Assembly (NCBI GenBank): GCA_964430295.1
Contig: CAYSEV010000001.1
Location: forward strand, 5,699 to 69,698
DNA length: 64,000 nucleotides
Direction of reading: 5' to 3'
Source: an uncultured Gammaproteobacteria bacterium
GTDB taxonomy: Bacteria; Patescibacteriota; Microgenomatia; UBA10105; UBA927
Position 1 is the stretch's first letter. Each line of letters starts with the position of its first letter. The position numbers and the translations under genes are program-made. Of the stretch, positions 1 to 38,500 are shown one piece after another. The notes under the pieces were generated by a model that ran no database searches, was not told the DNA's origin, and saw only the letters and a list, made by a program, of their open reading frames with translations.

Positions 1-386
1 AAGAAGCAGGGGAAACCGAAAAACCTGCTGTGTCTGAAAATGCTACCGGAACAGGAGGGTCACTGACCGTCATTGGTACGGCATTGGTAGACACAGGATC
101 CCGTATGGACGACATGATATATGAAGAATTTAAAGGCACGGGCAATATGGAACTTCACTTGTCCCGATCTCTGCAGGAGAGAAGAGTATTTCCTGCAATA
201 GATGTTGTTAAGTCAGGAACGAGACACGATGAATTGCTGCTTGGCGAAGAAAAGATGAAAAAAGTAGTGACGCTTCGTCATATGCTATCACTGTTGGGTG
301 ATGATGAGCGAACAATGATGTTGGTAGAAAAGCTAAGTAAAACAAAAAGCAACGACGAGTTCCTCGATTCTCTTTCTCAGGGATAA
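1..386 (+). CDS. rho: Transcription termination factor Rho, C-terminal fragment. The gene starts upstream of the window; the reading frame is open from nt 3 and stops at TAA 384-386.
   Basis: The translation ...[63 protein letters not shown]... aligns almost residue for residue with the C-terminal RecA-like/ATPase region of bacterial Rho (E. coli ...[62 protein letters not shown]...). The frame is open back to the window edge. Confidence 0.88.
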   Translation, partial: [127 protein letters not shown]

Positions 387-526
387 ATCTGCAACTTTCT
401 AGGATTTTTGTACTATTTTGTAAGTGATGCAGTTAAATATTCGGTCAAATCAATCTATACTAAGTCGTATATGCAAATGGGGCAAATTTTTAATCAGGGA
501 AAAATGGTATAAAATTGCCTAGAAAT

Positions 527-555
527 TTGCTGTCGGTTTACTGATTTAGTATACT
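527..555 (+). promoter_or_regulatory. Putative sigma70-type promoter for the M23 peptidase gene: TTGCTG (527-532), 17-bp spacer, TATACT (550-555).
   Basis: A -35-like and a -10-like hexamer with canonical 17-bp spacing sit about 20 nt upstream of the ATG at 574. This would give a very short leader with no obvious Shine-Dalgarno sequence. Confidence 0.25.
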
Positions 556-573
556 GCGTGTGTCTTACAGCGT

Positions 574-1659: not shown

Positions 1660-1789
1660 ATGGAGATAAGTAGTCTCACTTTGTCTCTGAGATGGGCTTC
1701 GCGGGACACACTTCGAACTTTTCCAATGCTGTTTTAATAATACATGTGGCAGTGCCACGCGTAGTCCCGATGTCTATCGGGACGAAGTG

Positions 1790-1860
1790 TGGACCCATCG
1801 AGAATCGAACTCGAGTCTCTGCAATGCGAATGCAGTGTTCTACCACTGAACCACGGGCCC
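1790..1860 (-). tRNA. tRNA-Ala, anticodon CGC.
   Basis: Reverse complement: GGGCCCGTGGTTCAGTGGTAGAACACTGCATTCGCATTGCAGAGACTCGAGTTCGATTCTCGATGGGTCCA. It folds as a cloverleaf with a 7-bp acceptor stem carrying the G3:U70 Ala identity pair, D-stem GTTC/GAAC, anticodon stem CTGCA/TGCAG with loop TTCGCAT (U33, anticodon CGC, A37), T-stem TCGAG/CTCGA with T-loop TTCGATT, and discriminator A. CCA is not encoded. Confidence 0.8.
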
Positions 1861-1876
1861 GATATCCAAAAGATGT

Positions 1877-1927
1877 GTCGCGTCAAACGCGACTACCTTC
1901 TCAAACGCGAAAACCGCGTTTGACGCG
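1877..1927 (-). promoter_or_regulatory. Structured spacer between the two tRNA-Ala genes. A 13-bp inverted repeat (cgcgtcaaacgcg at 1879-1891 and cgcgtttgacgcg at 1915-1927) encloses two perfect hairpins: GTCGCG-tcaaa-CGCGAC (1877-1893) and CAAACGCG-aaaac-CGCGTTTG (1902-1922).
   Basis: The complementarity can be read directly. On the transcribed (minus) strand the hairpins lie between the two tRNAs, and a short U-run (CUUUUGG) follows the second. The element could be a processing or anti-termination structure, or a weak terminator. Confidence 0.4.
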
Positions 1928-1928
1928 G

Positions 1929-1999
1929 TGGACCCGAGGGGAATTGAACCCCTTTCTACTCCATGCCATGGAGTTATACTACCGGTGTACTACGGGCCC
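1929..1999 (-). tRNA. tRNA-Ala, anticodon GGC.
   Basis: Reverse complement: GGGCCCGTAGTACACCGGTAGTATAACTCCATGGCATGGAGTAGAAAGGGGTTCAATTCCCCTCGGGTCCA. It has the same acceptor stem as the other tRNA, with G3:U70, D-stem GTAC/GTAT, anticodon stem ACTCC/GGAGT with loop ATGGCAT (U33, anticodon GGC, A37), T-stem AGGGG/CCCCT with T-loop TTCAATT, and discriminator A. Confidence 0.8.
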
Positions 2000-14500: not shown

Positions 14501-17500
14501 AGTCCTGCTTCGCTTCGTAAAAATGAAGATGCAGTAGGTAAATTTGCCAGAACATACATATTTGCACCAAACCCGTTCAATCAAACATTATCACGAGGTC
14601 AAAAATGGGCATCAGCTCCAATGTTTATCGGCAGATATGTTGTTATAGCCGGTAGTCCACTGATGTGGCCGTTGGCTGTAATGGATATGGCAAATATATG
14701 GAATGAATATAGACTTTCACACGGTCAACCCACGTGGACGCAGCAACCGAATGCTCCGGAATGGTTAAAAAATGGAATGCGCAATGCAGTACAGCCGGAT
14801 GCTCTATATGGAGAAAATATCGAAAAGGGGAATGGGAGTAGATGGGGTGCGGTAGTCCATTTTGCAGCAGGGTTATCCGGTGCATTCATGCATGCAGTCT
14901 GGGGACCGGTTGCAATGCCATTTATGGCATATGATGTACTGACTGCATCAGCATCGAGATATCCACAGAGCAAAATTGTTGGATATCTAAAAGATGGGTT
15001 ATTCCCGGCTCCATGGAAGTCAGGACAGACAGGCATTCTCAATATTGGCTATTACGTAGCAACGCGTTGGCTACTATTTACTAATCCATTTACAGCACCG
15101 ATTGGAATACCTGTTCTTATTCATGATGCCTTCAGATTTTTAAATGATTTTGTAAATCAGGAAGTTGCCGGACAAATCCGACAACCAAATATAGATGCTG
15201 CAATTGCGTATACACAAGCCGAATTAGATAAGCAGGTTGCATTATATGAAAAGACTAAGTCTGATTTGGAAGCCGCTAAGAAATCGTACGCAGATTTGGT
15301 GGAAAAATCGAACAGTGGTAAGGCACGTGCAAAGGAGCTGCAAGAATTGATTCGAAAAGCCAGAATCTCTCTCTCTGCATCTGAAGCTAGATTGACACAA
15401 TCAACTGAGAGGCTGAATCAAGCAAAAAATACTGTAAATGCATTGAATCAACAAAAGACTCAAAAAACGTCGAAACAGGATCTGCAAACCGGATACGGTC
15501 TAGTCTCTGTTGCCTCCACTGAACTTATCGGTCGTGATTCTTCTCTCGGAAATATTCAAGGAAGCAGAGTATCGCGCAGACACGCATTAGTGTATCGGGA
15601 TCGTGCCACAAATGTGCTGGGAATCTCTGATTATAACTCAAGCAACGGGACATATGTAAATGGAGAACTGCTATCAGGCTATCTGGAACTGCAATTAGGA
15701 GATATTGTTACACTCGGTAAATTACGAGAACCTGAAAGTGCTGTATTGACGGTAAAATTACTTAATGGAGTGTTGGAGTTAGTAGATAGTCATGGAAAAA
15801 CAGTCAAAGGTAAGGCTATTAGTGCTCCGCCAGTAACTTCTGCATCAGATGCAGTAGTAAAATCAACAGTTTCTAGAAAGACTCCACTTGAAACCATATC
15901 AACTGGAGAAGCTAACTCTTTGAAAAACAGAATAACTATATCTGGCGATGAATTTAGAGGGAAAAAACTTACGGTAAATGAATTATATAAACAAAAACTA
16001 CAGCCTAAATACAGTATTCAAATTGACGGAACACAATATTACCTATCCGATTTATATGACATAGGTCAAGGCAGGCTGGCAGGCGTTGTCTATGTAGAAA
16101 TTGACGGTGTGTTTCACGCAAGATCATTCTATAGAAGTAATTCTTCAGCTGTATGGCGCTATTTGCCGGGATACGCTTCTGATGATGATGAAATTACCTG
16201 GTATTCGAAGGCATATGGTGAGGAAGGTATTAACGCTCCAATTACACTACAACAAGCATTAAGTAGATTACAACAGGACGGATCTCTAGTTCGCCCTGCT
16301 GACGATCAATTTATATTTGCTGGCCTTGCCCAAAGGCGAAGAGTCTCATCGACCTGGCTCATTAATATGAGGGAACAACCGGAAATGCTGAATATATCAT
16401 ACTCACGAAAAGATGCAGATAAACTTGCTGATCCGGAAAGTATGAAGTTCACAAATCCTGATGATGCTCCGGATTTTGGATCATTCCTAACAAGTTGGGA
16501 AGAGGACACTGCTCTATACGGAAAGATTACAAAAGATGCATTTTTATCTAAAAATAAAAAATATACATATGTCTTTTATCGCGATGAAGAGGGTAGAGCA
16601 GGCATAGCTTTTGTAGAAAATCAATCAGAAATTGTATCTCAGGGTATACGCCAACAAGCAGTTATAATTGGTGATTTAGCAACGCCTATATTTGAATATG
16701 ATTCACAAGCAGGCGGATATGGAAATGCCAAAATTCGCAGAGGACATTATGTGGATATGTATGCGAACTACCTAAGTAAAATACCAGTGATTCAGGAATA
16801 CCAATCATTCGTGAAACAAGGTGTCCGAAAAATAGCAAAGGTAGAGTCAATAACAGCAGAAGAAGCTGATCGTTTGTCAGAAGAAATTAGAAATGCATCT
16901 ACCGCAATGGAAGATGCACGAAGAGTTACGGTTTCTGATGCGAAACAGGTTACGCAATACAGAGAACAACTAGCGGTACTCCTCAATGAATTGGAATTGT
17001 TGGTTTCACAGGAAGGAGATGTTAAAGCTTCTTACGATGCCATCGTTTCGGGTAACGATGAAATTAAAAAAATTCAGGAAAAGATTGATCATTTGGAAAC
17101 AAAACTGGAAGCCCTTACAAACTGGAATCAGGCGAAGAAAAATCTTCTTGCTGCAAAACCACAAGCACAAATTGAGTGGATTGACCTGTTAACTGCACCG
17201 ACAGAAGAAATCATCCGAAGTATGAATAAGATGATTACACAATCGGCATCTGTGCCATCAAGCTCTCAGGTATTGGAAGCCTTGAGAGATAAGGATAATG
17301 ATGGAAAATCCGGCATAGAGCGAGTATCAGCGGCCGGAGGATACGTTGCTGTTTACACTGCACTTCAAAGCGCAAAAGCGTCAAATAGACAGGCCGATAT
17401 AGATATTGTTATGACAACACTTCGCACTGCTGCCGCAGAGCGATTGGAAAAAATAACCGGAAAAGCTATCGATCTGAACTCAAAAGAAGGGAAACGGATG

Positions 17501-20500
17501 ATAGAGGAGGCAATTTCCTATGAGCTTTCAATGTTTGCAGGAGAAAAACAATCAACAAAAGTGACCGATGCCACGGCTCCAAATAAAATAACTGCGGCAA
17601 TCAGTAAGTTCTGGCACAGTTTGCCACGTCCAGGGAAAATATTTGCCAGCCTTGGCCTGGGCATAGTCACGGTGTCTCTTATCACCACAATGCTTTCATC
17701 AACCGGATCCAGAGCTCCGCCTGTAGATACAGCACCACCTCAGACTCAAGTTGTACAGATGGTAGAACAGTCTCCGGTCCAGGCATTAGACCAGGTATAT
17801 CAGGAATCAGATCAACAATATGTATACACACAGGTAGCACAGGCTCCACAAGCTTCAGATCATGCATCGTCTCCACCCGTGATTACAAATACAAATCAAC
17901 AAGGAGGATTGACCGCTCAACAGCAGGACCAACTCATAAATGTGTCGATGGAGTTTGTAACAGATTCAGGAAGTGAGACAACACAGAGATCAGCGGAACT
18001 TCTGGGATTAAAACAACAGGATGGCAGTGTGATATGTGGTCCACTAAGTGCAACAATACTGCAAAAAGCCGGTTTATTGGATGCATCTGTTGATCCAATC
18101 GATTTCTATCAGGCAAATGACTGGACAAGCCAAGAATCCAAAGTAGGTACACTCTGGTATCTGCAAAAAACGTTCCCGACAGATAAATATGATTGGGTTG
18201 AATCACAACAATCGATTGGGGAGTATGATTTCAAGGCAAATCCACTACAGCCGGGAGATCTGCTCTATTTGAAAGGTGGAAACTTCACTCATTGGATCAC
18301 CATTTCACGCGTAGATAGTAGGGGTAGAGTATATGCAGTAACGAATATACAAAAAGGATTTATTACAGGTAATCCAAATGATTCCGAATGGCTTATACAA
18401 GAAGTGTTAGTGTATGATCCTGCAAACCCGCAGCTTGGACAGTTTGCAAAATGGACAGGGAATGATTATCCACAACTTGGAAAAACAGGGCTGAAAGGAT
18501 TCAGGCTTTGGAGGGCAAAGGGAACTACACAGGCACCAGTCAGTAGTACAAATACGGGGTCAAATACAACAACACAACAATCTCAGTCTACAAATTCAAA
18601 TGCCGCTACAAACAACAATAACCGTGTATCGGATTATTCCGCTTATAGTGTAAGGGCAGATGCTGCAATCAACGCAGTGCCATATGAAGGAATTCCTCAG
18701 GCTCGCTATGATCAAATGTTGGCGGATGGTGTTCTTTCAGATGATGAAGTGCGTGAAATGTATGAAATGTACTATAAGCCAATGCCTGCAGAATTTGTAT
18801 CTACAGGCACATTATACGGACCGCTCGCTAACGCAATCGGTGAATTGCATTGGTATGGAAATGCAATGCGCCAACAAATGGCCAGAGGGTTTGTACTTTT
18901 TGGCAATAATTCATATGGATATAGAGAAGATTTGGCAGATGAGCTGAAAAATTATGATGGTCCGTATGGGTCAACTCTCGGTGATAGGACAAATATATTA
19001 TTACAAAATCAGGCATCACCTCTTTATACTGTTCTTGCTGATCGGGTACGTACACCGGATAATCAGCCGGTTCCGTTGGAGTATAACGATCTCAACGAAC
19101 GACAGAAGTTAATCTACGACATGACCTCAATGGGACAGGATGAAACTGCAAAGAAATACTTCGTGAGTATAGAAGAACAGTCACAAATGACACCTGAAGA
19201 AGCATTGGCATCAGGCAAGTTTATAGGAATTGTATCATCCAAATCTCCAAATGACTTTGGTCGAAGATATATGCTGTGGAAATATGACGAAACCACAAAA
19301 CAAAAGAAATTTATTGGAATCGTCGTAGTCGCAGGTGAAGCAAAGCGTGGAGATTGGGTTCCGGATCAATCAGGTGATCCAACTTTTAATACGTATCCGC
19401 TTGGTCTTCGGGTGCAAAACGGGCAATCATGGGGATTTGATTTGACGACAAATGTGTACGAAGCGTTTGGTGGGACAGGGGGTCCAGTGTTTGATATCGT
19501 TGCAGTTGACCCTGACGGTCCGCTTACGACTAGAATGGAGCGTGTTGCAACAACAGAAAGTGTACAACCAACGTCATTAGCTCAGCCGTCAACATCAGGT
19601 CAAACATCTAATACATCTGCGCCACAATCGGCAACTGTACAGCAGACATCTCAGGTTGCTACACCTGGTCAGACATATGAAGTCGCATACGATACGTCAG
19701 TCCCCGAGAAGTATACAGTAGGAGCCTCAACCGCAAGGAGTGAGGCGGCTCCAAATGGCGGCATCCTTCTTACAGATCATGACCAGTGGTTGCCGATTGC
19801 TGAAAGTGATATTCCTGCATCTGCACAACTGCGTAATCCGCAGAGTTATATAAATACCATCAGATATTTCCACGTCACAGAATCTATACGATACAAAGCT
19901 GCAAGTAATACCACATACTGCAATATATTTGTATCGGATGTCACACGTGCCATGGGAGTAGAGATTCCGAAGTGGATTAATGGTGAAGGAACGTATGCGA
20001 ATTTCTTGTATGACTGGCTGGCAAATCCAAGCGAAGGCGGCAAAGCAGGATGGGTAGAAGTAAGCGCACAAGATGCGCAGGCATGGGCGGATAAAGGATA
20101 CCCTGTCGTGGCCTCCGCCCAATTTGAAGGGCACGGTCATATTGCTATGGTTATACCCGGGACGCCGGCGGACGGATTTATCCACAACGGTGAATATTAT
20201 CCAAACAGTGCGCAGGCAGGGCGGATAAATTTTGAAGGAAAGAGCACATATGAAGGATTCCATAGAGGATTGGAGCAAAATCAAGGACATCCTATCAAAT
20301 ACTTTGTGAACACGGGCAAAACTGTAAATATATACAAATCTGCTGCCGGTATCATCCCGATCGGGCTGGTTGGACTATGGGAAAAAGCAAAACAGGGAAT
20401 GGGCTTAACCAAACATACGGGTAATCCGGAAGATGAAGAAGTTGTAGAGACTGCCGGACCACAGGGTGCAGATGCAAAACTCGAAGAATCCATTACGGCA

Positions 20501-23500
20501 TATCTGGATGCGCACGATCCGGAAGGGTATACGCGTATATATGATTATTCCAATGCCCCAGAAGGAAATAGAAAACATCTGATTGCACAGTATATCATCG
20601 ACAAATTGTATGAGCAGGTACAGACTGATTCAAATGAACGCGGGGTATTTGCATCGGCAATGGGCGCATCAGGAGGCAATATACAGCCACGTATAACCGT
20701 TATAATTGACGATGTTAATAACATAAAAGAAGGTGCAGCGATAACAGTCAGGTATAGTGACGGTTCTGAAGTAAAAAGCAAAATAGTTCAGAAAATACCG
20801 GGTAAATCTACAGGTCAAGATTATTGGTTAATAAACAGTAAAGACGAACTATTTGCAGTGCCGACAATAGCCATACTGACGAGAGCAGCGGCAGATGCGC
20901 AACGAGACAATAAATCAGCAACAAATCAGCAGGGCACATCAGGTTCAAATGCAGTGAAGACTGAATCGGACGCAGTTAACAAAGCAAATGCTGATGTTCT
21001 GGCAGCCAAAAGTGAGTTTGAGAAAGCACACCAGGAATCTGAAAAGGCACGTATTGCAGCTGAATCTGTAACAACTTCCACAGTAGATCCGCAACTTCTC
21101 AAGGTCGCTCAGACGAATATGGCTGATGCACTTGGTGAGCTGAAAGTTGCAGAAGCAGATCTGACACAAAATAGAGAAATGGCTGATCATTACAGACAAA
21201 AACTTGAGCAGTTGAGAATACAACAAACGCTTCAAGAGCACACAACCGACGAAATGGCTATATTATCTCTCGGTTCTCCAATTACAAGAACTGATACCAC
21301 ATATGTCGTTGATGATGAATCATATGACGAATCATACGCTATTGAAGCCCAAGATGGTGAGTTTTTTGGAGAATTTGGAGCATCAGTTCGTGAAATTATC
21401 GGCATAGGCTCACCGAAGAAATTTGGTGCTATTGAAGTCTGGCTATTTGATAAAAATGATATAAAAACAAAAACAATTTTCCTTGTATCGGAGTATGCAT
21501 TTAACGATCCTGAAATCCGTTCACGATTAGAACAACTGGGAGAAGTAGTGCAGATTCAGACTGGTCCAACGGGCATATCCGTCATACGAACAAAAGATTT
21601 ACAGTTACACATATTTGTAAAGGATTTCGTGTACAGCAAAGGTGGGCCACAGGCAGATGTAAGCACGTTTGATAGAGTAACAGTTCAGTTAGAAGCATAT
21701 GCGAATGACGTTTCCACATTTGCAGGTCCTGTGGATATGCCCCAAATCGAAAAAGACATACTGGAAGCACAACAGCAATATACTGCATGGTCTGAAAAAG
21801 CGCGTCTTTCTCAAGAGGATGTCGCAAGACGCCTGGCGGCATACACAGAAGCGAAAAGGATTCTTAAGCAACTGGAAGAATCAGCAGAAACCGTTGCAGA
21901 TATGGCTGCATACGAATCAGCAAAAACCCGGGAAAATGAGGCAAAAGCACGCTTTGAAAAAGCACAATCTCATGCAGATGTATTGGCTGACTGGCAGAAA
22001 GCAAAAAATGAAATGCATGTGCTTAATCCAAAAGCGACCGTTGAACCGATAGATCTAAATACCGCAGATGATGGGGCTATAGTTGCTAATACTGCGCTGA
22101 TGCGTGCTGTTGAGCCTGTTATAGTGGCCGAGGCATCAACGCTTTATGACATGGATATCAAGAGAATCGGGCGTGTAAAGGTCGCTCTTCTATGGATTGA
22201 ATTCCTCAAAAAGTATCCAAACCAGATAACGACAGAACATAGAGTTCGCCTGTATCAGGGACTTGTAGCCGCACAAAAAGGACTTGCTGCAAAAGATGAT
22301 CTGATTTCAGCAGCGGATAAGACACTCATCGAAGAAGTACTTGCAAATGACGTTATCATACGCATTCGTGACGGATTTGGTGTCGGATCTACGCCGATCA
22401 ACACGCCGATGATGAAGACATTTGCATTGGATCTCATGGCATATGAGCAATCCGTTTTTGAAACCGGAAAACTAAATACAGATACAGAGAAAAAACTGAA
22501 AAAGCAAATAGCAGATATACTAGACAGTAAGTCGACAATTTCTGACAGTCTTCTTGCTACACTACCGAGCCGTGATCCAGAAGTGATTTGGAAGAAGATT
22601 ACAGACGGATTATTTAATGCAGCAATAGCAAATGGATCAACAAATGGGAATAAAAACCAGAATAACCCTGCTGCGAATACTTCATCAGTAACACCTGCAT
22701 CTGGAACATCAGGACAATCTACATGGCTATCAAGGCTGTGGGACAGGTCATCAAATTGGGTAAAATCCGGGAGTAATTTGGGCGAAAAGATCTTTAGAGG
22801 AATAGTTGTTGGTTCTATTTGGGTCACAGCTGCTGTAGCTTCAGCTTTTCTGATTACAGTTGTCTTTAATTCTGTTATGTTGTTGATCCCATGGTATGCC
22901 GGGTTGATCAGTTCTGCACACGTTTCATATTCATTGCTTGCATGGATAATTCCATCATTATTCATGCTCTCTGGATTATTGAATTTATCTGCGCCTCCGA
23001 TTATGCCACCAACGAATGCATCAGTTGTAGCGAGAGTGTGGCATGCTGTTCGCAATCCGTATCCTTGGCAGAACGGATTAACAAAAGAACAAAAACCTTA
23101 TGTATGGGGTGCCTTTGTTGGGAGATATGTGTTGGCAGGGATAATTAACCCAATGGAAATAGGCATGGGTCTTGTTGACCTAACAAACGGCATAAATCAC
23201 ATGGTGCGCCCTGCGATTGCACCTCAAACAGTTGAACCCAATAATACTGCTGTTGAACCGTCAGCATTCAGAAAATGGATCAATAAACCAACTTCACCTG
23301 CATTTTTGTCTAAAACAATACGATTCCTTGTTAATCCGCGATTTAGAGCAGATGACCCAGAGAAGCGGACAGGGAGTAGCTGGGGATACGTTCCCCATGG
23401 TGTAGGATTGCTAGGTATTTTCAGAGTATTCCAGACACCGATGGCTGCAACAATCGCGATTCCATTTGTGGCCCATGATGTCTATAACCTGCTGCGCAAC

Positions 23501-26500
23501 GACAAACCGACAGGCTTTTGGGCTACTGTTGGTGACTATTTCCTTTTCCCGACATTCTGGCAAAAGAATACGATGACAACAGGTCAGAGGTGGTTATCTT
23601 TTGCAGGCTGGGTTGTCTCTAGAGGATTCCTCCTATTAAATCCGACTACGCCATATTTTGGATATACTTTGATAGCTCAGGATATACTTCGTATGACAAA
23701 TGATTTCCTTGCTGCCAAGTGGGCATTCCAAGGGAAAGATCTGACTGTAGCACCCACCACAACAGGAGCCGGTGCACCACCACCAAAAGAAGAAGATCTG
23801 ACAGTGTCAGGTAAAAAGACAATTGGCAAACAGGATGTACAGACCAATAGTAAACTCCTTGCCATTGTGACGAATGCTGAGAACAAAGGATTGAAAGTTA
23901 TTGAGTACACAGTAAAGGCAAAAGACGCAGGCGTAAAAGATCAACGAATATGGGTGGTAGAGGGTGCAGGCGTAACCCCAATAACCAACGAATATATCAT
24001 AAAACTGGCAGCACAGCGAAATAGCATCACCGCCAAAGCCGGGTTCCCCGGACCAGGAAAATATGTTGATGCATTGTCACAAGAAGCTATTACTCAGGGG
24101 ACTGCAGAGTTATCTGCGGTTGGAGATAGGCAGATAGTGCAGGAAGAAGCAGCAATATCATCAATGAGTGATGGAAGCAAACTCGGTATTCACTATGCTG
24201 CAGATGTTGCACAATACACAGATGAAAATCTACATATACCAGATAATGAGTTACTTGATCTTAGTATTGTTGTTCATGCGAAAGACCAAACAGGTGTCTT
24301 GGCACTTCTTGGAAATGTGTACGGTGGTCAGTGGATGAGTAAAAATGACTATTTTGCAAAATGGGCAAAAGAAGAAGGAATCGTTACCCCATTACCAAAA
24401 AATATCGTTACGTATAAAGCATTTATAACATGGTATGAGACACAGGCAGTGTTTACCAGTGGCGCATATTCATCACAAAATGGCAAACTGTTTGTAAATG
24501 GTACTCCAACACAGCAGGTTATTGCACCGGATGGCAAACCGATCACAGATCTGTATAAATTCCGCCATCTTCAAGGTGATTTTTATATGATCAGTGCAGA
24601 GAATGCGCATGGAATCTTCAAGATTAATGGAACAAAAGCAGAGTTGATTGTGGCAGCGCACAACAATAATTTCCACGATGATGTGACACAAGCCGGATGG
24701 ATTACATTTGACAAAGAAGTAGATGTGAAACAGGCAAGTGTACTTCCATATGTAGATGGCAGTGCACTCTTTAACGCGCAAACAGGCAATCATGTTCAGA
24801 TCAGCTCTCTGAAGAATTTTGAACGAACAGGGGCATATATGCTCAAGAGCGAAACGATTGATCCGAGTGAACGATATGTTGTATTTATCCAGAGCAATAA
24901 TAAGGATGCAACCGCAAAAATCGGTATTATCGATCTACAGAATTTGGATGCAGGAATTGTGTATTCTGGTCAACTTACCGGCCATGTATCAGATATAGAA
25001 TTTATCGATGGAAACACCATTGCGGTGTCTGAATACGGAAAAGAAAAGGGAAGAATAGATCTATCTGCCACGTTGGGTGGCAATAAAACAATACTTCCTG
25101 GTGTTGTAAAACCAGTATCAGCACCGAATGTATACGATTCAGAAGGGCGAAATATTAAAGTGGGCGATACCATAGAGTACAAAGATAATAGCGGAGCGAA
25201 GAAGGCTGTGGTACAGGGCTTTACAAAAACTGGCCAAATCATCTTCATGGAGCTTAATAGCACAGATGGGAATAAAGCGAAGATTGCTCAGGGAGATATA
25301 GTAGCAAGAGGTGTGAAGGTTGTGTCTCCAGATTCCTCTTCTCCAAGACCTCAGCCAATTCCTGCTGTTGGAGTTAAACAAAAATTGACCACAAAAGGAA
25401 AGATTACTCCAGGAAAAGATACACTTCAGGTATATGCGGAGAATAAATCGACTAATAGTAATGTAGATACCTCAAAAGCCCGTGTCAGTTGGAATGTGCC
25501 TTCTACGCTTGCCAATATAACATATGGCTACGCAGTAACGAATAACCGTGGCGGAATATTTGTGAACGGAGAGCTTCAAACAGGAATAAATAACCCTATT
25601 CAAAAAAAGAGTGAATTCAAAAAAACAAGTCTAACATTCGGTACTGCAACTCCAAGTGACACACGGCCTGTTTTGGATGTCTATGCAGTATTTGAAGATG
25701 GGGATATGCGCTACTATGTACCGCTATCTGAACTGGAAAATGCTGAGCTTGCAGTGCCAATAGGACCGACGAAAACAGTAGATCAAATTATTCAAGAATT
25801 GGATGCAATTTTAGCTACAACCGTATCCGAAGAAAATTTGGAAATAATGCAACAAAGTGGAGAAGCGGCATCCGATCTTATATCCCAGCTTACAGAGAAT
25901 GGATTTTATTGGGTAGAAAGTCAAAGAGATATCGTGACTTTGAATGCAACGAGAGAAAAATTAATTAAACTTAAACCATACTTCCAAAAAACTAAAAGAC
26001 TGGAAGATTTTAATACTATGATCGCAGCTATTGATGGGCTTTTAGAACTTGCTAAAGCATCACCTCAGGAAGTGCGGAATGCTGAAGCCGTAGCGAAGCT
26101 TCAGGAGGAAATCAATGCCTCCTTTGATGAAATCATCAACAATGGCATCTCTTTGGATTCTATTAATGTATTCAGGATTATAATTGCCCAGACTATAAAA
26201 AATGCCAGAGCCCTTGAAGGATTAACAGAAACTGCATTGAATCATTACAGTAATAATCTGACTGTATTGGAGAAATTACGCGATGTGATCATGAAAATGG
26301 TACCTTCTCTATCCGTGATGAATGAAATTGCTGAGATTCAGGACCTCATAGATCAATTAGACCTTCTTATTGAAGCCGCCAAGAAGACTTCACATACACC
26401 TATTGGCACATCAGAAGCAGAGATTCTAGCAGCACTGCAGAATGTGCAAAAAACAGCGATATCAGAATTTAAGGCAAATAATATAGAAGATATGCAACGG

Positions 26501-29500: not shown

Positions 29501-32500
29501 GCCTTTATAGAGCAAATGAAAGCAAGTCCTGTCGAAGAGCAACCTGAAGTGTTAGGAAAAACCGTACCGGATATAACTGAAAAAGCAGCGGTGACATTAC
29601 CAAGTGTTCGTGAAGCCGTAAACGAAGCCATAGTTCAAACACTCATCAAGATAGGTGTTGCTTATATTGAATCAGGTGATCGATCCATTATAGAAACTGA
29701 GCTTAGAGGTCAGTTGCAAAAGCAAAAGGTAGATCTGACTCTTATAGCAAGGCCGGGACAAACAGCAGAAGCTGTGTTAGAAGAACTTGTTACCGCACTG
29801 GTAGAAGATTACGCTCCAGCTGTTAAAGAACATACAGCTGATCTTTCTGCAATAGAGCCTGCCAAAGCAATGAATAAGCTTGAAGTAGCCATTGATGAGG
29901 CTACAAACGCTATACTAGCTCGCGTTTCAGCGGAACAGCAAAAAACTCAAACACACACTATCGGTCCGGTAGAGATTGCCACCAATATCGGTCCGAAAAA
30001 GACGACAGGTTTGAGTGCAGATGCCTATGGAGTTCCAGAGCGATTTGTCAGTATAAAACCGGGATTTGCAACTATATCACAGGCACAAGAGGACGTTCAA
30101 ACAGTTTCACCTGAACGTATACAACAATATGGACGTGCCAATATAGTTACTCATGGTCTGGGACAAGCCGATTCCTACGCGAGCAGATATGTAGTCGGCA
30201 GATTCTATTCACTATTTTATGGAATAGGAGTAGCTGCTCTTCAACCTACGCTTGAGTCTACTGAGCGTGTCATGGCAATTCTTGCACAAATAGATGGTGA
30301 ATTGATTGAACAAAGCGCCAAACAGAATACCAAGCTCACAGCATCAGTGGCGGTAACGGTACAGAACGGGGGATTATTACAAAGTATTTGGGTGGGAAAT
30401 GTTCAATCTCATTTGGTGCGTGAAGGTCGGGTTATTCCACTCACATCCCCATCTTCATATGTACTTGGAGAAGGAAAAGCTCTGCAGCAGGGGGTCATTC
30501 AAACACACAATGATATGCCGACGTTAGCCCCTGAAACATTTGGTCCTGAGAGTGATATCGTGCTTGCAAATGGAGACAAGATAGTACTCTCTTCAGATGA
30601 AGTTATATCTCTATACGGTGGAGCTACTGCTGTTGTATCTGAAGGTCAGTATGCTGTGAGTGTCACAGATGCGAATCCTGCACAAACCACAGTAAATAGC
30701 GCCATTAAAACCGCATGGGAATCAAATAACAGTTCATACGATGCACTGACGACGGTTGTTGAGACAATCACAGTAAGTGGTAAGCGCGTGGCTACCAAAA
30801 AAGAAACCAAGCTTACAGAAGCCCGCAAACATGCTATTACATCCGGAGTAGCTCCATTAGCAGCATTCCAGGCAGAAACGCCAGAAGAATTAGCAGTATT
30901 AGAAACAAAGGCTTCACAAGCTCAAGTTCAAAGAGACGCCCAGCTGGAGGAAACATCGGATAAAGGAAAAGGGCGAAGATCCAGAGCAAAAGCCACTACG
31001 AAGAAACGCATGATTCAGGTACAAACACATGTGGGTGAAGTAGAGCTGCTATCAACTGAACCATTTAGTACGCAGGTTGTAGAAGTTGAAAAAGTGGTAA
31101 ACGATCTTGATCAGAGTATTGCCAGACTTGAATCATCGCCACTGTTAGATATCCCTCAGGAAGACCGTGCAGATGTCGCAACAACACTTATAGCGGCACA
31201 GAAGACTCGTGAAGATCTGACAGAACTGCATAAGAAGATACAGCGACTTATGGAGGCAAAAACGGCCATACAAAAACAATTTGGGCTTACATTGTTTGAG
31301 TGGCAAGAGCTGACGACAATTTCAAGCTTTGGGCAATTGCAGAAATTTGTTGCACAAGTTCAGCAGAGAATAGAGGAAGATGCCAGTATCAGAGAAGCTG
31401 CCGCAAACCGTGCAGCTAAGGAGGAAACACAGCAGGCACAAAAACAGGCGGACATCGATGCATTATCAAAAGAAGGGCAATTAACATTGGATAGTGAATT
31501 AAAGGCAAGACAACTGGAATCAAGAATCGCTATGTTAGAAGCCCTAGAATCTCTTAGAAGAGTGTATGAAATACAAGATTCACAGTACCTGCAGATGGAG
31601 AATGAACAGGCAGATGCCATCAACGCAGAAATAGATGCGGCATGGATTGCACACGAAGCCGAAGCAGCATTAGAGCAGTATTGGTCAGTCACGCTAGATA
31701 TACAGGAAGCATCCGCATTGCCGTCTGCGGAGAGAGTTCAAAAATACACAAATCTGCGTCCAAAGCTTGAAGAGGCAATTGATGTAATCCAATCCATGGA
31801 TCCACGAACATATCCTGAAGATGTGGCATACACACTTCGTGTCATAGCAACACGATCAGACGAACGATTAGCAGATATAGATGCAACGATTGCAGCGGAT
31901 ACACAGGCAAACGCACTCCGTGAAGCCCGCAGGGTTGCTATTGCTGCCGGACTGTTGACGGCAAAAGAAGCATTTGAAGCAAAAACTGTTGCAGAAGTTG
32001 AAACAAAGCAAAAAGCTGCACAAGAGCAAAGACAACAAAATCAGCAATTGGCACAGGAAAAAGCAACCGCAGAAGTCGCCACACGTAAAAAAGCGGCTAT
32101 TACGACAGCCGTAACCAAAATTCAAAAAGCCATCAATGTCCCACTTGTTGAACTTTCGACCCTCAATGTAGAAACAATTCTGACAGCACCGGAACTTGAG
32201 GCATTAGCCGCTATTTCAGCACAGGGAGATGAAACAGTAATAGCCGCTATCACTACACTATCTGAAACACAGGAGAGTGCGAGAACTGCAGTAGAGCAAG
32301 CAAAAGCAGCACTTGAAGTCATAGGACACGTCAATGAAGTCTTTACTCAACAATCCGCTACTTCTATAGATGGGCCTGATACAGGCGTGTTGAGTCTGGC
32401 AGATACAGTTGGACAGGTTATAGAAACCCGATTGCAGCAAACAGAAGATCTATCAAATCAAACGGACGCTATTGTTGAGGATTCATTGCCACCTGTTGCA

Positions 32501-35500
32501 AAAGAGCAGATTGCGGCAGCACGCAAAAAGGTTAAAGCCCGCAAAGATGCAATCACAAGAGTAAAAGGAAAAGTAACAGCTGTACGTGTCGCAGTAAAGA
32601 AAACAAATACACTTATTGCTCAAAAAACACAAACCGATAAAAAACCGGATGCCGAATATCTTTCAGAGCTCAGTGAACTTAATATCTTACTCGTGGAGGT
32701 TTCACAGGATATGAAGGTTGCGGGATTACTCAGTCCAGTCGTGACTCGAGCCGCTGCCTTGGTAAAAGATGAAATAGCGGTAGCAGGCCCCGAGGCACTT
32801 AGCACTATATCTGAATCATTGGAGAAAGCGCAAAAAGCCCTACAGCAGCAACAGGAAGCAATCGCAAAAGCAAAGGAAGCGCGCAAAGATGCAGGATTAC
32901 CTGAAGAGCAGAAATTTATAAAGGGAAATCCAAATGTTATCTCCGACTTGATCAAATCCATAGTTGATACAGCCAGATATTATTTGGGCTTTGATCGTAT
33001 AAAGCCAACGACAGTAGGAGTGCCCACAGGTCTTCCTGATGAAGAATCAAAACAAGTTGAACCTGAAGTAATCATCCCGCGTTGGAGGATACTCTGGTCA
33101 TCCACATTCCAACCAGCACGTGATCTTGAAAACAGAATAGCCCGTATGGAAGATTCATACGCAAAGATTATGACTGATATGGAATCAGAAGGATTTAATA
33201 ATCTCGATTTGTTAACGGTATCTGCTGTTGATGCTGTCCAAATGCGCACATCCATAGACGCGTATAGGACCCGATTACGAGCGTTGGTTGGTACGTTATC
33301 AACTGTACAGAATAGATACACTAGACAAAATGGTAGATACTCACAGTCCGATCGCGAGAGGCTCTCTGGATTCCTATCGGATTTGCAGACACGCATAGAT
33401 GTCTCAAATGAATCATTGGATTTGTTATATACAGGACTAGGGGAAATTGTACAAAGGCGAGACGTATTTATTGATGAATTGCCTCCTGTTGAACGCCCTG
33501 CGTTCTTACTTGTAGAACAAGTTGAAACAGCGCTTAGCGTTTTCCCATCAATCAATGATGGATGGTCAAATAAAAAAGAATTGGCAAAGACATTGGAAGA
33601 ATCATTGGCTGAACGCGAGCGAATGTATCTCGTAATGCGCAATGATTTCTTGTGGAATCCACCATATATTAGTGAACTGGGAGGAGTTAAAGAAGAAGCA
33701 TATCAAAAATATAAGAAACAATTCGATGCACTGTTTGAACAGTGGGATAATCTCAACAAAGCGTACGAAGAAATGCTCAAGGTTATGCCGGATGAAAGAG
33801 TTCTAGGACATGTTGCTGGTGGCAGATTTGTCCCGTCCGAGCAATCTCCGGAATTTGGCGGATCACGACTATCTATAGACTGGTCAGGTGATCACATTGT
33901 CATTGCGTATTCACTGATTGGTATTTCAGATCCGGCAAGCAACTGGACGCTCAACGGTCAACCAATTGCCCTTACACCGGATCATACGATTGATATAGCA
34001 GATGGTGACGTCCTTGCAGTTGCGCATGGCGAGTATTATGGGCAGACATTAGAAATTCATAAGAATGGCGAAATTACATTCGTATCAAAAACAGATCAAA
34101 CATTAGCACAAAGAGCAACCGCAACTTCTGTAAAAGCTGCTGGTGGTCTTATCGGCTGGTCGGTCGTTAGTATTGTCGAGTCAAGTGAGACACAAATGAA
34201 AGCAACTGATGAATTCAATGCATTGCATAAGAAGAATACTCAGTTGCCTCTTCTAAAAATGGAAAAGGTAGAAGGTCAGATAAAAAAGACTGAAAAAGCA
34301 CTAACAGAGCTCAATAGACACCTGTCACTATTGCAAAGTACTGTCATGGATAACGTTTCCGGCAGATCCGCCACACGCCGAAATGAAATTATCGCAGAGC
34401 TTACCCGAAGAAAAGAGATTCTGGAACAGGATCTTTTAGCACTGAAAGCAAAATATGCAGACCAAGGATTCTCGGTAAATATATCTATGCTCAATGAACC
34501 TATACGCATCGAAAGAGGACAGGAAGCGGAATCTCCAATTCCTGGTGTCGTCATTAATGAAGATAAAACTATTCAGTTAACATCATCAGATCAGGTTGAA
34601 AACTTTGTAAATGGTACTCCAAACGCATTTGGATTTATCATTCAGCCAGGCGTTGGTTTGCCGATATTAACCAGAAACAAGCTGACAGGACACCTTCAGG
34701 CTTATTTTGTGCTGAACGAAGATGGCGTGCTCATTGTTCATGAAATTCCGTTGGCACCATGGTATAGAGATACAAACAAAAATATAGATGCTCTTGAAAT
34801 TATTAATCACAGAATTGCAGACATAGAAATGTATGATTTGGAGAATATGTTCGGTACAAGAGCCGTTGGAATATATGCCGAAATCATAAATGGTACCTCT
34901 ATACTTCGTAAAATTCGCGGAGATGATGGCAAAACTCTCATTGCCATTACCGATGCTACTATCCCGACGGTTCGGAACACAATGAAAGAAGAAATAAAGA
35001 ATCAAATAGCAGCGTTCAAAGAACAATTAAAACGTACGCGAAGATCAGATGAGCAATATGATCTGATTCAGAAGAGAATTGATGAACTGCAGGCACTTGA
35101 TAAATCAGATATCCTGAAACCGGATGGGTGGGAAGATATCGCCTTTATCAGCGAAAAATACGAACGCAGTTTAGTACATCGTGTGGCTATAAAAGCGGAA
35201 AACTTCCGTTCAACATATAGAAAATTTCCGTTAGTTCGATGGCTCAATTTCGCTTCAGGTATACCATTCTACGCGTCTACAGTGACAATGGTTACAGGTG
35301 TTTTGGGAACAGTACTTGGTCCTGTAGGATTAGCCATAGGTCCTATTGTAGGTCCTATCTTGTGGGCATCACCGATTCCACTGAATCCATCTGATTTTTT
35401 CTGGTTCGGTGTTGATATATTCGTCAAAACGGTTACTGCGCCGTTTATCCTTCCAGATACGATTGTCGGCATGGCTGCACGAACTCATGGATTCTCTGAT

Positions 35501-38500
35501 TTACCACGATTGCTTGAATGGTTGATATTGCCACGATTCTTAGGTCAGGTTGGATATAGGGTGTCTCCTGAACAGTACACAATCTCATCGGATGTCAGAC
35601 GGGCAGGAAATAATACGGAAGTATGGTATGTGAAGAAAAATATCAAGAAACCGAAGAAGATAACTATGAATGTGTTTGGTAAAGAGGTCCTAATCCATGA
35701 TCCAAACTATGGTTTATATAATATCCAAAAATGGAGAATTCCTATACCATTTATAGATCATAGTTTCCATATACTGGGATCAGGGTATCAATCAAAGTTC
35801 AAGATATTCTTGGGCAAGAGTCAGGAATACATAAACCTCTATGTACGCGTTTGGGAAATGCAAAATAAATTGCGTCAAAAAGTACCGACAGAACGAACCA
35901 AGCTGTTAGGTGGTGTTGCATCAAACGGATACCTTGATGAGGTACAGCAAACCCTTGCACTCCTTGCTACGGAAACTGATCCAGGCCGGATTCGTACACT
36001 GGAGCAATACTCAAGAAAGCTTTTGACAAATATAGACGAGCTCATCATTGAACTCACAAAGCTTCGTGATGATACACAGTCGTTCATCATCCGCGAGCCA
36101 AGGCAGATGAAAGGCCTTGATACGGCAGGAATCTCTGCTACACTCCTGGCTCTTATGGACAATAAGGCACTATTAGTCAGCCAGTTATCTGTTGCGCAAC
36201 TGCGCATACAACATGATGTCATTGATGGGGCGATAAAAGGTGAGGTTAGAAACGCGGCTCCAAGTGTCAGAATCGCATTGGAACGAGCCATTCTCTTGCC
36301 TCAAAAACTGTTAAACAAATTATCACAAGTGTTTGTTAAAGCAGGTCCGCAGGGAGCGGCGTTGGAACCAACAAATTGTACGTCCTGTTACACAGCTCTG
36401 CGAGATATGAATGGGTATGTAACTCGTGCTATCGCAGATAAGTCAGGAAAGAGCAATGTATTATTTGACGATGCAAATGTCGTACTTCAGACAGAAATAG
36501 ATAAACTTACTCGTGAAAGCGGAAATGCGTTAGTCTTAGCTGATGCGGAACTTGCAAAGTCTATGCTTTCTGCCGTTGTCAGTGAGGATCCTAAGGCCGT
36601 ACGCGAATATCTGAATAATATCCATACCCAGAAATTAGCATTATCAAAAATTGCAGATAAAAAGAGATTGTCTAAAGAACAAAAAGCACGATTGGATGAT
36701 ATTATACGCCTACTTAATACACTTGGTGATCGTATAGAAGATCTCGTAGATGTCATAGATACACCGACCATAGGTGTGAAAGCAGATGCAGTGGAAAAAC
36801 ATCAGCAGATATTGGATATCGATGATGACTTTGTCGTAAAAGAGGTAAATCAGATTGTTACCCCGCGCAAGATAACAGTGGCAAGTTTTGTGCGTATGAT
36901 GTCATTCTTCCTTCCATTCCTGGTTGAACCGGCATATGACGATACATATGTTGCAGATGTGCTTTCACAGGTTCATGTTCCGGAATTACAAAAACTTCAC
37001 CCCGAAAGACAGTACCTTAGAGTCCGTACTAGGGATATAAAATACCTGGCAAACGGCACGGAAAACTTTGTCTATAAAGGAACATTCCGTTACCTGGAAA
37101 ATGGTGAGCTTAAGACAGAAGTGAAGATTGTAAAGATAAACCGTAAAGAAGATAGCAGGGAACTGTATGGGTGTTACCTTGCCTATGTTGCGTGTCTTCG
37201 CTCGTATGTATACATGTACTCATCGATAGGAAAGGTTATAGAAGAAAAGTATCCGGACCTGAAGTATTTTGTACCACATCACGATCTGTACCATATAGGC
37301 AACCTGCAAAACTCACTCATCGTCACAGAATTTGTTGAATATAAGAGCATGAGTAAGTATAAGTTTGAAAGTGAAGAAGAACGGGAGCGCTTAAGTAAAG
37401 AAATAAAAGCAGCAACACAAGGACTCATGGAGGATCTGGATAAACGATATGCATTCCAGTTTGATTTCGTGGGAACAGATAATTTAGTCATAGGCAAGGG
37501 AGCTGATGGACTATCTCATGTCATGTTGCTAGACCCTGGTATGTATGATTCACGGCGTGTTGTGTTAAACAAAATCCTAGGGCCGATATCTCGAAGTGCG
37601 ATGCGTGTAATCGATCGATTTAGAGCAAAACAATACATCAGAATCTTTGAACCTAGTGTTTGGAAGACAATGGGATTCAGATTGCAGGCCCTTCGGGTTG
37701 GCGGTTTTTCAAAGGAAGATGAACCGATTGCCCGTAAAGTATACGATGCAGGCTATCGTGGCGCCTCAATGGCTGTATTAACTGATCGAATTCAGAAGAT
37801 ACGTACGTATCTTCCATTGACTGAGAGTATCAGAACTGTGTTGGAAGGGTATAAAACGATCGGATCATACTTATTTGATCGGTATTATTTGCGAATAGAC
37901 AGTACCAATAAAGCAAAAGTATTTTTGCATGTGGCTGACTGGGTAAAAAATAAACTTCCTGATGCACAAATTTATCAGCTTTGGAATGCTGTTGCGGCTC
38001 TTCCTGATGATATGCGCACGTCGGCAGCCAACTATGTAACCATAGCAGTTCGAAGACATGTTCCAACCAGTCAGATATTGGGAACATTAAGGAATCTAAC
38101 CTCTCAGGGAACAGCACAGGCAGGTTGGAAGGGGATAGCCACAGACACGAGCCTTACAACAGTAAATGATCAGGCATATACACAATATCTTTATGCGGCA
38201 GCACTCCCACAACTTCGAACCTGGATTCAGGGAAATACTGATACAGCAGATATTCAATCTGAAATAACACAAATAGTAGGGAATATGGCAAATCTGAATC
38301 CTTCTACTCCAACCCGCGGATCTCCGTTTACGCAGGTACATATTGATGCTGCTATCCGAGCCTTGGTAGCTGATTTCTCCGAAATTCAACGAGATGCGCT
38401 CCAAAATCAGGTTACTCCTCAAACAACACAACCGTCACTGCAGCAGGATCTTATACGAATTATTCAGGAAGTTGTTAAAGATCCTAAAGAATTTATTCGT

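Follow-up and report, generated by a model that had tools for sequence, protein, structure and literature searches.

An FHA domain and two probably inactive PP2C-like domains in a giant multi-pass membrane protein

The largest open reading frame described here encodes a multi-pass membrane protein of 14,241 aa in which only three modules are recognisable, namely one FHA domain and two domains of the PPM/PP2C fold. As read from the translation, the FHA domain keeps the Arg/Ser/His/Asn signature required for phosphothreonine binding, and both PP2C-like copies are probably pseudophosphatases. With moderate confidence, we favour a model in which an FHA reader and a pair of pseudophosphatase-like domains within this membrane giant would mediate phosphorylation-dependent docking.

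The giant protein, which the preliminary description had put at about 14,000 aa, indeed reads as one uninterrupted ORF (Table 1), and hydrophobicity scans reveal at least seven hydrophobic (transmembrane) clusters along it. Two of its membrane modules represent an internal duplication (29% identity; BLASTP tiles, E=4e-13 and 2e-6), the strong hydrophobic segments of the first module lying at aa 3879-3897 and aa 3955-3973, while for the second module the topology obtained by simply counting helices disagrees with the positive-inside rule. The linker between the first module and the FHA domain is probably a coiled coil, as suggested by weak SMC/Rad50-type matches over roughly aa 4211-4298 and by the heptad-like charged sequence in the translation. 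The PP2C-like pair lies approximately 4,100 residues C-terminal of the FHA domain, and its tandem copies are approximately 700 residues apart. Since the FHA domain follows the first membrane module, the PP2C-like copies follow the homologous second module, and the hydrophobicity scan found no strong hydrophobic segment between this second module and the copies, we infer that all three domains would face the same side of the membrane. When the giant and the next giant ORF (5,994 aa) were searched in tiles and boundary tiles, FHA was the sole Pfam domain above threshold; scanning aa 4001-14000 against NCBIfam and PDB sequences gave nothing further, and no orthologue of the giant was found in any collection searched. 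As for the host, an uncultured bacterium, the sequence provides weak evidence of a Patescibacteria/CPR lineage, a flanking rho fragment pointing to Patescibacteria rather than Omnitrophota.

Table 1. Location of the giant ORF and of the features discussed in the text; positions are counted from the first nucleotide of the window (the whole 64 kb stretch of DNA that was analysed)
Feature	Residues (aa)	Position (nt)	Strand	Remarks
Giant ORF		2582..45307	+	14,241 aa, GTG start; ORF list, table 11, uninterrupted
Multi-TM membrane module, copy 1	3777-4246	13910..15319	+	Directly upstream of coiled coil and FHA domain
Linker, probably coiled coil		15320..15526	+	About 70 residues, between membrane module 1 and FHA domain
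FHA domain	4316-4379	15527..15718	+	PF00498, E=1e-12; 48.7 bits (cut-off 20.7)
Multi-TM membrane module, copy 2	6627-7103	22460..23890	+	Internal duplication; hydrophobicity
PPM/PP2C-fold domain, copy 1	8440-8724 (alignable core 8476-8709)	27899..28753	+	
PPM/PP2C-fold domain, copy 2	9147-9411	30020..30814	+	Paralogue of copy 1; reciprocal HMM
Proposed kinase-like segment	11489-11655	37046..37546	+	Motif order of the protein-kinase core

The PF00498 match above the cut-off (Table 1) substantiates the FHA domain that had been claimed at 15490-15730. Among NCBIfam models the domain matches FhaB/FipA best (2.6e-6) and also OdhI (3.7e-5), and the solved FHA domains that it matches include those of Vps64 (5e-6), SLMAP, ArnA and M. 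tuberculosis FhaA (PDB). The phosphothreonine-binding signature is intact, with IGR at aa 4316-4318, SRRH at aa 4331-4334 and SSNG at aa 4353-4356; moreover, the SRxH and SSNGT motifs align with those of solved FHA domains.

Both PP2C-fold domains that had been proposed were likewise found, at 28.0-28.7 kb and 30.0-30.8 kb, with profile homology that is significant and reciprocal. The copies are paralogous (29% identity, BLASTP E=1e-28) and have a long block in common (ASRYxxGRFYxLFYG, WVGN). Of the Pfam families for the fold (PF13672, PF00481 and PF07228), copy 1 stays below the cut-off (PF13672, 22.1 bits vs. 24, E=1.2e-4) and matches NCBIfam Stp1_PP2C at 6.9e-6; copy 2 alone has no Pfam or NCBIfam match. 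An exhaustive search of 1.84 billion proteins with a two-copy profile returned 80 matches at E<=1e-3 (best E=3.9e-10); all ten of its top matches that were checked score above the Pfam PP2C cut-offs, and one carries the name PrpC in its source. A reciprocal HMM built from 35 PP2Cs scored copy 1 at 64.9 bits and copy 2 at 46.5 bits, and these were the only places it matched in both giant ORFs (approximately 200 tiles). Hence, despite the sub-threshold Pfam score, the exhaustive profile search, the reciprocal HMM and its specificity identify the two copies as true PPM/PP2C homologues. A PDB profile search with the copies retrieved PP2Cs only. An AF2 model computed from the two-sequence alignment was of low confidence (pLDDT 40.3, pTM 0.45); the top 50 Foldseek matches of the copy 1 model were all PPM proteins, including TAB1, PppA and the deAMPylase SidD, at TM values of only ~0.2-0.3 and with a score that is partly sequence-driven.

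In catalytically competent members of the fold, the DGxGG Asp bridges metals M1 and M2, the SDG and DN Asp residues are M1 ligands, the GDSR Asp and Arg serve third-metal and phosphate contacts, and RxxNED contributes the phosphate-binding Arg and M2 ligands. The relatives matched by the two-copy profile carry the DGxGG Asp in 80 of 80 cases, the GDSR Asp in 75 of 80 (five genuine relatives have His or Asn), the SDG Asp in 74 of 76 and the DN Asp in 72 of 73, and the GDSR Arg is present in 75 of 80. In the giant, MAFFT and HMM alignments place Glu (copy 1, LAEGKG) or His (copy 2, VTHGLG) at the DGxGG Asp; the loss had been noticed for copy 1 and holds there, and it extends to copy 2. At the position of the GDSR Asp both copies have Asn, as previously read from WVGNSS (aa 8573) and WVGNVQ (aa 9270) and now upheld by alignment, and the GDSR Arg is not recognisable in either. 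Copy 1 additionally has Tyr for the SDG Asp (MTYGV) and Arg or Pro for the DN Asp, and copy 2 appears to retain both residues (SSDEV and YDALTT). The placement of SSDEV on the SDG motif is common to MAFFT, the two-copy alignment and the second HMM domain, the single-domain HMM alignment being shifted there. In the RxxNED region, the HMM alignments begin past the motif, and the MAFFT alignment shows QKD (copy 1) or QED (copy 2) at this place and no Arg. Realignment, by which intact catalytic Asp residues might have emerged, leaves none of the four alignable metal-binding positions intact in copy 1 and apparently two of the four in copy 2.

Glu, His and Asn are all able to ligate metals; given this, along with the two Asp residues that copy 2 appears to keep, residual or altered activity would be possible, and copy 2, which also has a His for the DGxGG Asp, may retain the binding of a single metal. 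PPM catalysis requires a binuclear, Asp-coordinated centre (PMC12002173), and TAB1, PHLPP2 and RssB, which are devoid of such metal-site residues, are inactive (PMC12002173, PMC6546054). The earlier suggestion of pseudophosphatases or docking scaffolds is consistent with these degenerate sites and seems the most reasonable reading of them.

A further component had been proposed in the form of a kinase-like segment (aa 11489-11655). The strings on which this proposal relied do exist, DPG included (LANGTENFVYKG, EVKIVKI, FDFVGTDN and LLDPG), but kinase similarity was absent from Pfam, NCBIfam, PDB sequences and the PknB-family HMM. Only one G-loop Gly is present (LANGTEN), the Lys lies within KIVK/TEVK rather than VAIK, the catalytic loop has QFD for HRD and D-x5-N instead of D-x4-N, and DPG takes the place of DFG. 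In Pfam and NCBIfam, no kinase-like family (PF00069, PF07714 and atypical kinases) reached E<=1, ApoE noise was all that PDB sequences yielded at E<=10, and no homologues at all were found; the unfiltered PknB-family HMM left the segment outside its top 15 tiles. A relaxed kinase motif constellation was matched once, at a chance rate of 1-14% of shuffles. On present evidence, we do not accept the segment as part of the phospho system. Neither giant ORF nor the flanking genes of the window gave a Pkinase match in Pfam, and no partner Ser/Thr kinase, for which a search of the neighbourhood had been proposed, was found within these 64 kb.

We therefore consider phosphorylation-dependent docking as a reasonable model, in which the phosphorylation input is hypothetical because no kinase was found in the window. 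The PPM fold of both PP2C-like domains may have been kept to offer a surface for binding or scaffolding, as is the case for TAB1, PHLPP2 and the RssB C-terminal domain, and the FHA domain would dock phosphothreonine sites made by a Hanks-type kinase whose gene lies elsewhere in the genome. Through such docking, phosphorylation could assemble or switch the giant, or partners gathered at its cytoplasmic stretches, similarly to FHA-dependent T6SS control (Fha binding phospho-TssL) or to the M. tuberculosis transporter Rv1747.

Other readings of the same modules deserve consideration. One or both PP2C-like domains might still be enzymes, either phosphatases or other phosphoester hydrolases, whose metal site is non-canonical. 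This is more plausible for copy 2, its SSDEV and YDALTT Asp and the His at DGxGG being possible M1 His/Asp/Asp ligands; the occurrence of His or Asn in place of the GDSR Asp in the five relatives, the single metal still bound by PHLPP2 and TAB1 (PMC12002173) and the support of other chemistry by the PPM fold, as in SidD, also speak in favour of this reading. However, loss of the DGxGG bridging Asp, invariant in the relatives, removes the binuclear centre needed for catalysis (PMC12002173), none of the four alignable ligands is present in copy 1, and neither the GDSR Arg nor RxxNED is recognisable. We consider retained enzyme activity quite unlikely. The FHA and PP2C-like domains could also be evolutionary relics that serve only as structural filler in a surface or attachment protein of huge size and rapid evolution, with no phosphorylation-dependent function left. 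The orphan status of the protein, its near lack of other recognisable domains, the absence of a kinase from the window and the degenerate PP2C sites all fit such a view. Yet a fully intact phosphothreonine signature would be unexpected for a relic in so divergent a protein, and the block common to both copies suggests that constraint continued after duplication; on balance, we regard the relic explanation as unlikely.

Low probability is likewise assigned to the idea that aa 11489-11655 forms a protein-kinase-like domain, or a pseudokinase, that has diverged very far, by which writer-like, reader and eraser-like modules would be brought together, in spite of several features in its support. 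The order and spacing of its elements are core-like (G-loop-like LANGTENFVYKG, beta3-like EVKIVK, hinge-like LIVTEFVEY, catalytic-loop-like FDFVGTDNLVI, and LLDPG for DFG), a low-confidence AF2 model gives the secondary structure order strand-strand-helix ... helix-strand-strand-DPG, short Foldseek matches reach the N-lobes of EGFR, HER2, SYK and DDR1 (25-30% identity over 56-69 columns), and a generic constellation including the G-loop occurs in only 1.3% of shuffles. A self-contained phospho-switch, in which a divergent kinase-like module, the FHA reader and two pseudo-PP2C docking modules are united in one giant, appears very unlikely; were it true, the giant would control its own assembly or host-cell contact without separate signalling proteins.

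The favoured docking model can be set against several known systems. Omnitrophota 'Archaeovorins' and other giants of ultra-small bacteria are alike in being encoded by long ORFs, with many TM regions and divergent, mostly unannotatable sequence (bioRxiv 10.1101/2023.11.21.568195); in contrast to them, no SecA-DEAD, dockerin or peptidase domain was detected by Pfam tiles in the present giant, and the text of that paper contains no FHA, its single mention of a 'phosphatase' being fructose 1,6-bisphosphatase (bioRxiv 10.1101/2023.11.21.568195). The nearest sequence relatives of the two copies are bacterial PP2Cs of the Stp1/PrpC/PstP type, with matching blocks in the alpha1 helix (ASxYA), the ATT strand, the VG[D/N]S strand and GDxIxL. 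These relatives are proteins of 250-550 aa with the catalytic Asp present at the position-wise frequencies given above, whereas in the giant two to four of these Asp are missing from the copies, and neither has a RxxNED motif that can be aligned.

Fusions of FHA and PP2C domains exist, e.g., in plant KAPP. The statement that small, separate proteins are the normal setting of FHA, PP2C and STK was overstated, as the FHA-bearing ABC transporter Rv1747 of M. tuberculosis is itself a large membrane protein (PMC8339232), and FHA control of membrane machines has precedents (PMC3953482, PMC8339232). In the threonine-phosphorylation systems of T6SS (PpkA/PppA/Fha-TssL) and M. tuberculosis (PknB/PstP/FhaA/FhaB, and Rv1747 with PknF), an FHA reader is likewise tethered to a membrane assembly or part of it, and cooperates with a PP2C-type module (PMC3953482, PMC5995506, PMC8339232). 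Kinase, phosphatase and FHA are there encoded by separate genes and the phosphatase is active, whereas the giant fuses FHA and PP2C-like domains in one polypeptide, its PP2C parts look inactive, and no kinase was found in its 64 kb window. TAB1, PHLPP1/2 and the C-terminal domain of E. coli RssB resemble the two copies in having a PP2C/PPM fold from which metal-coordinating Asp residues are missing, and they function in binding or as adaptors rather than as enzymes (PMC12002173, PMC6546054). Unlike these, the giant carries two tandem paralogous copies inside a multi-pass membrane protein, and its substitutions, Glu or His at DGxGG and Asn at GDSR, differ from those described.

Our Pfam scan of both giant ORFs (1000-aa tiles, plus 500-aa tiles centred on each tile boundary) revealed a single domain above its curated cut-off in approximately 20,200 residues, namely an FHA domain (PF00498; E=1e-12, 48.7 bits vs. 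the cut-off of 20.7) within the first giant protein, where the preliminary description had put it. FHA domains are phosphothreonine binders, and the phosphothreonine-recognition residues are present here (IGR, SRRH and SSNG), with SRRH and SSNG lining up with the SRNH/SRKH and SSNGT of solved domains. The region also matched NCBIfam models (FhaB/FipA, 2.6e-6; OdhI, 3.7e-5) and solved FHA domains (Vps64, 5e-6; SLMAP; ArnA; M. tuberculosis FhaA), and is a typical representative of the FHA family. A charged, coiled-coil-looking linker of about 70 residues separates it from the preceding multi-TM module, and a search for a second FHA domain after the other such module found none.

The two PP2C-fold domains proposed for the same protein are likewise supported. 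The strings that had suggested them, WVGNSS (aa 8573) and WVGNVQ (aa 9270), are found in the protein, and tiled self-comparison (250-aa tiles), used to find internal repeats, showed the pair to be a duplication, the copies being paralogues (29% identity over ~340 columns, E=1e-28). Copy 1 matched Pfam PF13672 below the cut-off (E=1.2e-4, 22.1 bits vs. 24) and NCBIfam Stp1_PP2C (6.9e-6), while copy 2 alone gave no match in Pfam or NCBIfam. A profile built from both copies was compared with 1.84 billion cluster representatives with no word filtering and retrieved 80 proteins at E<=1e-3 (best library-wide E-value 3.9e-10); all ten of the top matches tested exceeded the cut-offs of the Pfam families PP2C_2 and PP2C, and one match carries the source name PrpC. 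Reciprocally, copies 1 and 2 scored 64.9 and 46.5 bits, respectively, with an HMM of 35 real PP2Cs, which, run unfiltered over ~200 overlapping tiles of both giants, matched just these two places. Profile search of PDB sequences to E=10 returned just two chains, both PP2C. Based on these sequence comparisons (paralogy, two-copy profile, reciprocal HMM, specificity and PDB matches), we regard the homology of both copies to the PPM fold as established. The AF2 model of copy 1, made from an alignment of the two paralogues only, is poor (pLDDT 40.3) and unfit for site geometry; hence, its Foldseek matches, the top 50 of which are all PPM (including tPphA, PstP, Stp1, PppA and TAB1), count just as corroboration.

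Mapping onto real PP2Cs by MAFFT and HMM alignments, with residue counts among the 80 nearest relatives, revealed that metal-binding Asp positions are substituted, so that the catalytic sites were rightly described as degenerate. The Asp of DGxGG, which bridges the two catalytic metals and is present in 80/80 relatives, is Glu in copy 1 (LAEGKG) and His in copy 2 (VTHGLG); its loss had been noted for copy 1 and holds there, but not as a feature of copy 1 only. As had been claimed, Asn replaces the Asp of GDSR (D in 75/80) in both copies, and the Arg of this motif (R in 75/80) is lost from both. The Asp of SDG (74/76) is Tyr in copy 1 (MTYGV) and apparently kept in copy 2 (SSDEV), and that of the DN motif (72/73) is Arg or Pro in copy 1, depending on the alignment, and apparently kept in copy 2 (YDALTT). 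Both MAFFT and the alignment of the two paralogues place SSDEV on SDG, as does the second HMM domain, the one-domain HMM alignment being locally shifted; the N-terminal RxxNED motif could not be aligned confidently in either copy. In copy 2, a possible His/Asp/Asp set therefore remains at M1, with which it might, like TAB1 and PHLPP2, bind one metal (PMC12002173). The two domains are homologous to phosphatases of the Stp1/PrpC/PstP type but do not qualify as competent PPM enzymes, and we group them with the PPM pseudophosphatases by analogy rather than through descent from any of them.

Coordinates of the features discussed in the text (aa positions refer to the first giant protein unless stated otherwise)
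Feature	Window position	aa	Strand	Remark
rho, 3' end	3-386			upstream of giant ORF
M23 peptidase with two LysM repeats	574-1659			upstream of giant ORF
tRNA-Ala(CGC), tRNA-Ala(GGC)	1789-1999		-	upstream of giant ORF
Giant ORF	2582-45307		+	14,241 aa, GTG start
Pro/Thr-rich, Cys-rich repeats	~3530-4570	317-662	+	N-terminal, after first TM helix
Multi-TM module 1	13910-15319	3777-4246	+	~470 aa, precedes FHA
FHA domain	15527-15718	4316-4379	+
Cys...His pair	18029-18307	5150/5235	+	VICGPLSA...FTHWITIS, by eye
Cys...His pair	19913-20152	5778/5850	+	TYCNIFVS...GHGHIAMV, by eye
Multi-TM module 2	22460-23890	6627-7103	+	~470 aa, precedes long stretch with PP2C-like pair
PP2C-like copy 1	27899-28753	8440-8724	+
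PP2C-like copy 2	30020-30814	9147-9411	+
Putative kinase-like segment	37046-37546	11489-11655	+
HExxH string	41132-41146	12851	+	HELWH, near C-terminus
HExxH string	44612-44626	14011	+	HELQH, near C-terminus
Second giant ORF	45494-63478		+	5,994 aa, directly after the first
Hydrolase- or lipase-like stretch	~51020-51286	~1843-1931 of second giant
YfhO-type membrane protein, C-terminus			-	downstream of giant ORFs

The multi-TM modules are also a duplicated pair (29% identity) with common motifs (SxNW...IF, GRYVxAG, EKxxGSxWG, PFxAxDV, LFPxxW and NDF), which matched no Pfam family. Strong hydrophobic clusters lie at aa 46-64, 1752-1770, 3879-3973, 5020-5038, 6751-6802, 10901-10957 and 13063-13234, leaving the stretch from module 2 to aa 10901 free of strong hydrophobic segments. 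Since the modules are homologous and no such segment intervenes, we infer that the PP2C-like pair and the FHA domain face the same side of the membrane, if both modules share their orientation. We presume this to be the cytoplasmic side, given that at module 1 and at the helix at aa 5020 a cytoplasmic FHA domain agrees with the positive-inside rule; for module 2, hydrophobicity and the positive-inside rule are internally inconsistent, as is simple helix counting. The repeats behind the first TM helix (aa 322-415 vs. 485-582, 76% identical over 98 aa) have the look of an extracellular region of stalk or adhesin type. Both Cys...His pairs follow the single TM helix at aa 5020-5038; considered by eye as papain-like NlpC/P60 or CHAP hydrolases, they received no support from Pfam even at E<=1, and neither did the HExxH strings as metallopeptidases. 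Three parts of the second giant ORF are related to the C-terminal stretch at aa 12846-13372, in which TM hairpins also occur.

The giant protein is essentially an orphan. Apart from the FHA domain, NCBIfam and PDB-sequence scans of aa 4001-14000 yielded only the weak PP2C match and noise from coiled coils. Two segments of 320-400 aa (PP2C copy 1 and the kinase-like segment) had no match among 5.8e9 proteins in word-indexed searches, and the PP2C region had no relative in GTDB genomes or JGI metagenomes by pattern scan. The second giant ORF gave a single domain hint, a stretch resembling an alpha/beta-hydrolase or lipase (best LIDHydrolase, E=1.1e-5; Lipase_3, 3.6e-4; all under curated cut-offs). 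This ORF also contains N-terminal and internal TM hairpins and two repeats (aa 4156-4261 vs. 4886-4998, 51% identity; aa 947-1054 vs. 4331-4438). The neighbourhood of both ORFs is an ordinary chromosomal context. A phage origin is unlikely, as phage records gave only short blastn matches at 78-241, inside the conserved rho region, and the flanking genes (rho, M23/LysM, two tRNA-Ala and YfhO) are chromosomal. The rho fragment has its best matches (65-66% identity) in MAGs assigned to Candidatus Roizmanbacteria and Patescibacteria, with Chloroflexota close behind, so that an origin from Patescibacteria/CPR is plausible, though weakly backed. In the closest rho relative, a Roizmanbacteria MAG, the corresponding position downstream of rho lacks a giant gene, and the ORF beside rho is unrelated to the M23 peptidase, for which exact look-up matched no record.

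The possible kinase-like region suggested for the same protein fared differently. The strings on which it was based are present, and their order and spacing fit a kinase core; canonical signatures are absent, with one of three G-loop glycines, QFD in place of HRD, D-x5-N in place of D-x4-N, and DPG in place of DFG. No kinase-like family was matched in Pfam or NCBIfam at E<=1, nor any PDB sequence at E<=10. In an unfiltered search with a PknB-family HMM, the segment fell outside the top 15 tiles; this profile is narrow, since the M. tuberculosis PknB kinase domain used as bait retrieved nothing but close orthologues of PknB (78-96% identity). The single-sequence AF2 model (pLDDT 36.6, pTM 0.29) is unfit for site geometry, and its Foldseek matches (best E-value 0.29) were scattered short N-lobe matches to EGFR, HER2, SYK and DDR1, which reflect the VYKG...VKIVK stretch. 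A generic kinase motif constellation, relaxed after the sequence had been seen, arose in 14% of shuffled sequences when no G-loop term was included and in 1.3% when the term was added. As every test was negative or uninformative, the kinase reading is unproven and, in our opinion, doubtful. Moreover, no canonical kinase is encoded in the 64 kb window, and a regular-expression search of 80 rho-linked loci revealed no Hanks kinase.

The identity of the parts can be stated with high confidence: an intact FHA domain beside a membrane module, two PPM domains with disabled binuclear metal sites, and no kinase in cis. Given what is established for the FHA and PPM families, we propose that a kinase encoded elsewhere would phosphorylate Thr sites on the giant protein or its partners, that the FHA domain would read these sites, and that the pseudo-PP2C pair would offer a non-hydrolysing docking or scaffolding surface within the same long cytoplasmic stretch. 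Bacterial FHA domains couple Hanks-type kinases to membrane machines, as seen for Fha, whose binding of phospho-TssL activates the T6SS (PMC3953482; PMC5995506), and for the transporter Rv1747, whose FHA domains act with PknF (PMC8339232). Similarly, PPM domains without the metal-binding Asp are inactive and serve as binding modules in TAB1 and PHLPP2 (PMC12002173) and in E. coli RssB (PMC6546054). The proposed scheme of kinase, reader and docking or scaffolding surface would be the most economical working model, which we put forward tentatively, at somewhat below even chances; parts and model taken together are reasonably probable. With an intact FHA domain next to a membrane module, Ser/Thr phosphorylation would be expected to target the giant protein or its partners, and this offers an experimental entry point (pThr-peptide binding, pull-downs).

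Other readings appear weaker. Residual or altered catalysis, in copy 2 especially, is quite unlikely. It is also improbable that the FHA and PP2C-like domains are relics without phospho-function, as the FHA signature is intact and copy-specific conserved blocks are common to both PP2C paralogues. We would give about the same low weight to the third segment, placed beyond the hydrophobic cluster at aa 10901-10957, being a genuine, extremely divergent kinase or pseudokinase, and consider a self-contained circuit of writer, reader and pseudo-eraser inside one polypeptide very unlikely.

To our knowledge, hardly any annotation exists for the giant proteins of uncultured ultra-small bacteria, and in the more than 20,000 residues of these two adjacent giants the phospho-signalling parts are the sole recognisable handles. 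The notion that FHA, PP2C and STK domains normally occur on separate small proteins is too strong, since plant KAPP joins FHA to PP2C, Rad53/Chk2 joins FHA to a kinase, and Rv1747 carries FHA domains on a transporter. Giant multi-TM proteins with divergent domains have been described in Omnitrophota and other phyla, in a text in which FHA does not occur and the sole phosphatase mentioned is fructose 1,6-bisphosphatase (bioRxiv 10.1101/2023.11.21.568195); none of the domains characteristic of those giants (SecA-DEAD, dockerin, peptidase) was detected in the protein studied here. The component domains and FHA-controlled membrane machines are already established, and no new principle is involved; the novelty is the architecture, in that an orphan membrane protein of 14,241 aa has no recognisable parts other than a tandem degenerate PPM pair and an FHA domain. 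With Glu and His at the otherwise invariant bridging Asp, the pair would add a bacterial case to the few PPM pseudophosphatases on record (TAB1, PHLPP, RssB), and could help to define the role of the PPM fold once hydrolysis is lost.
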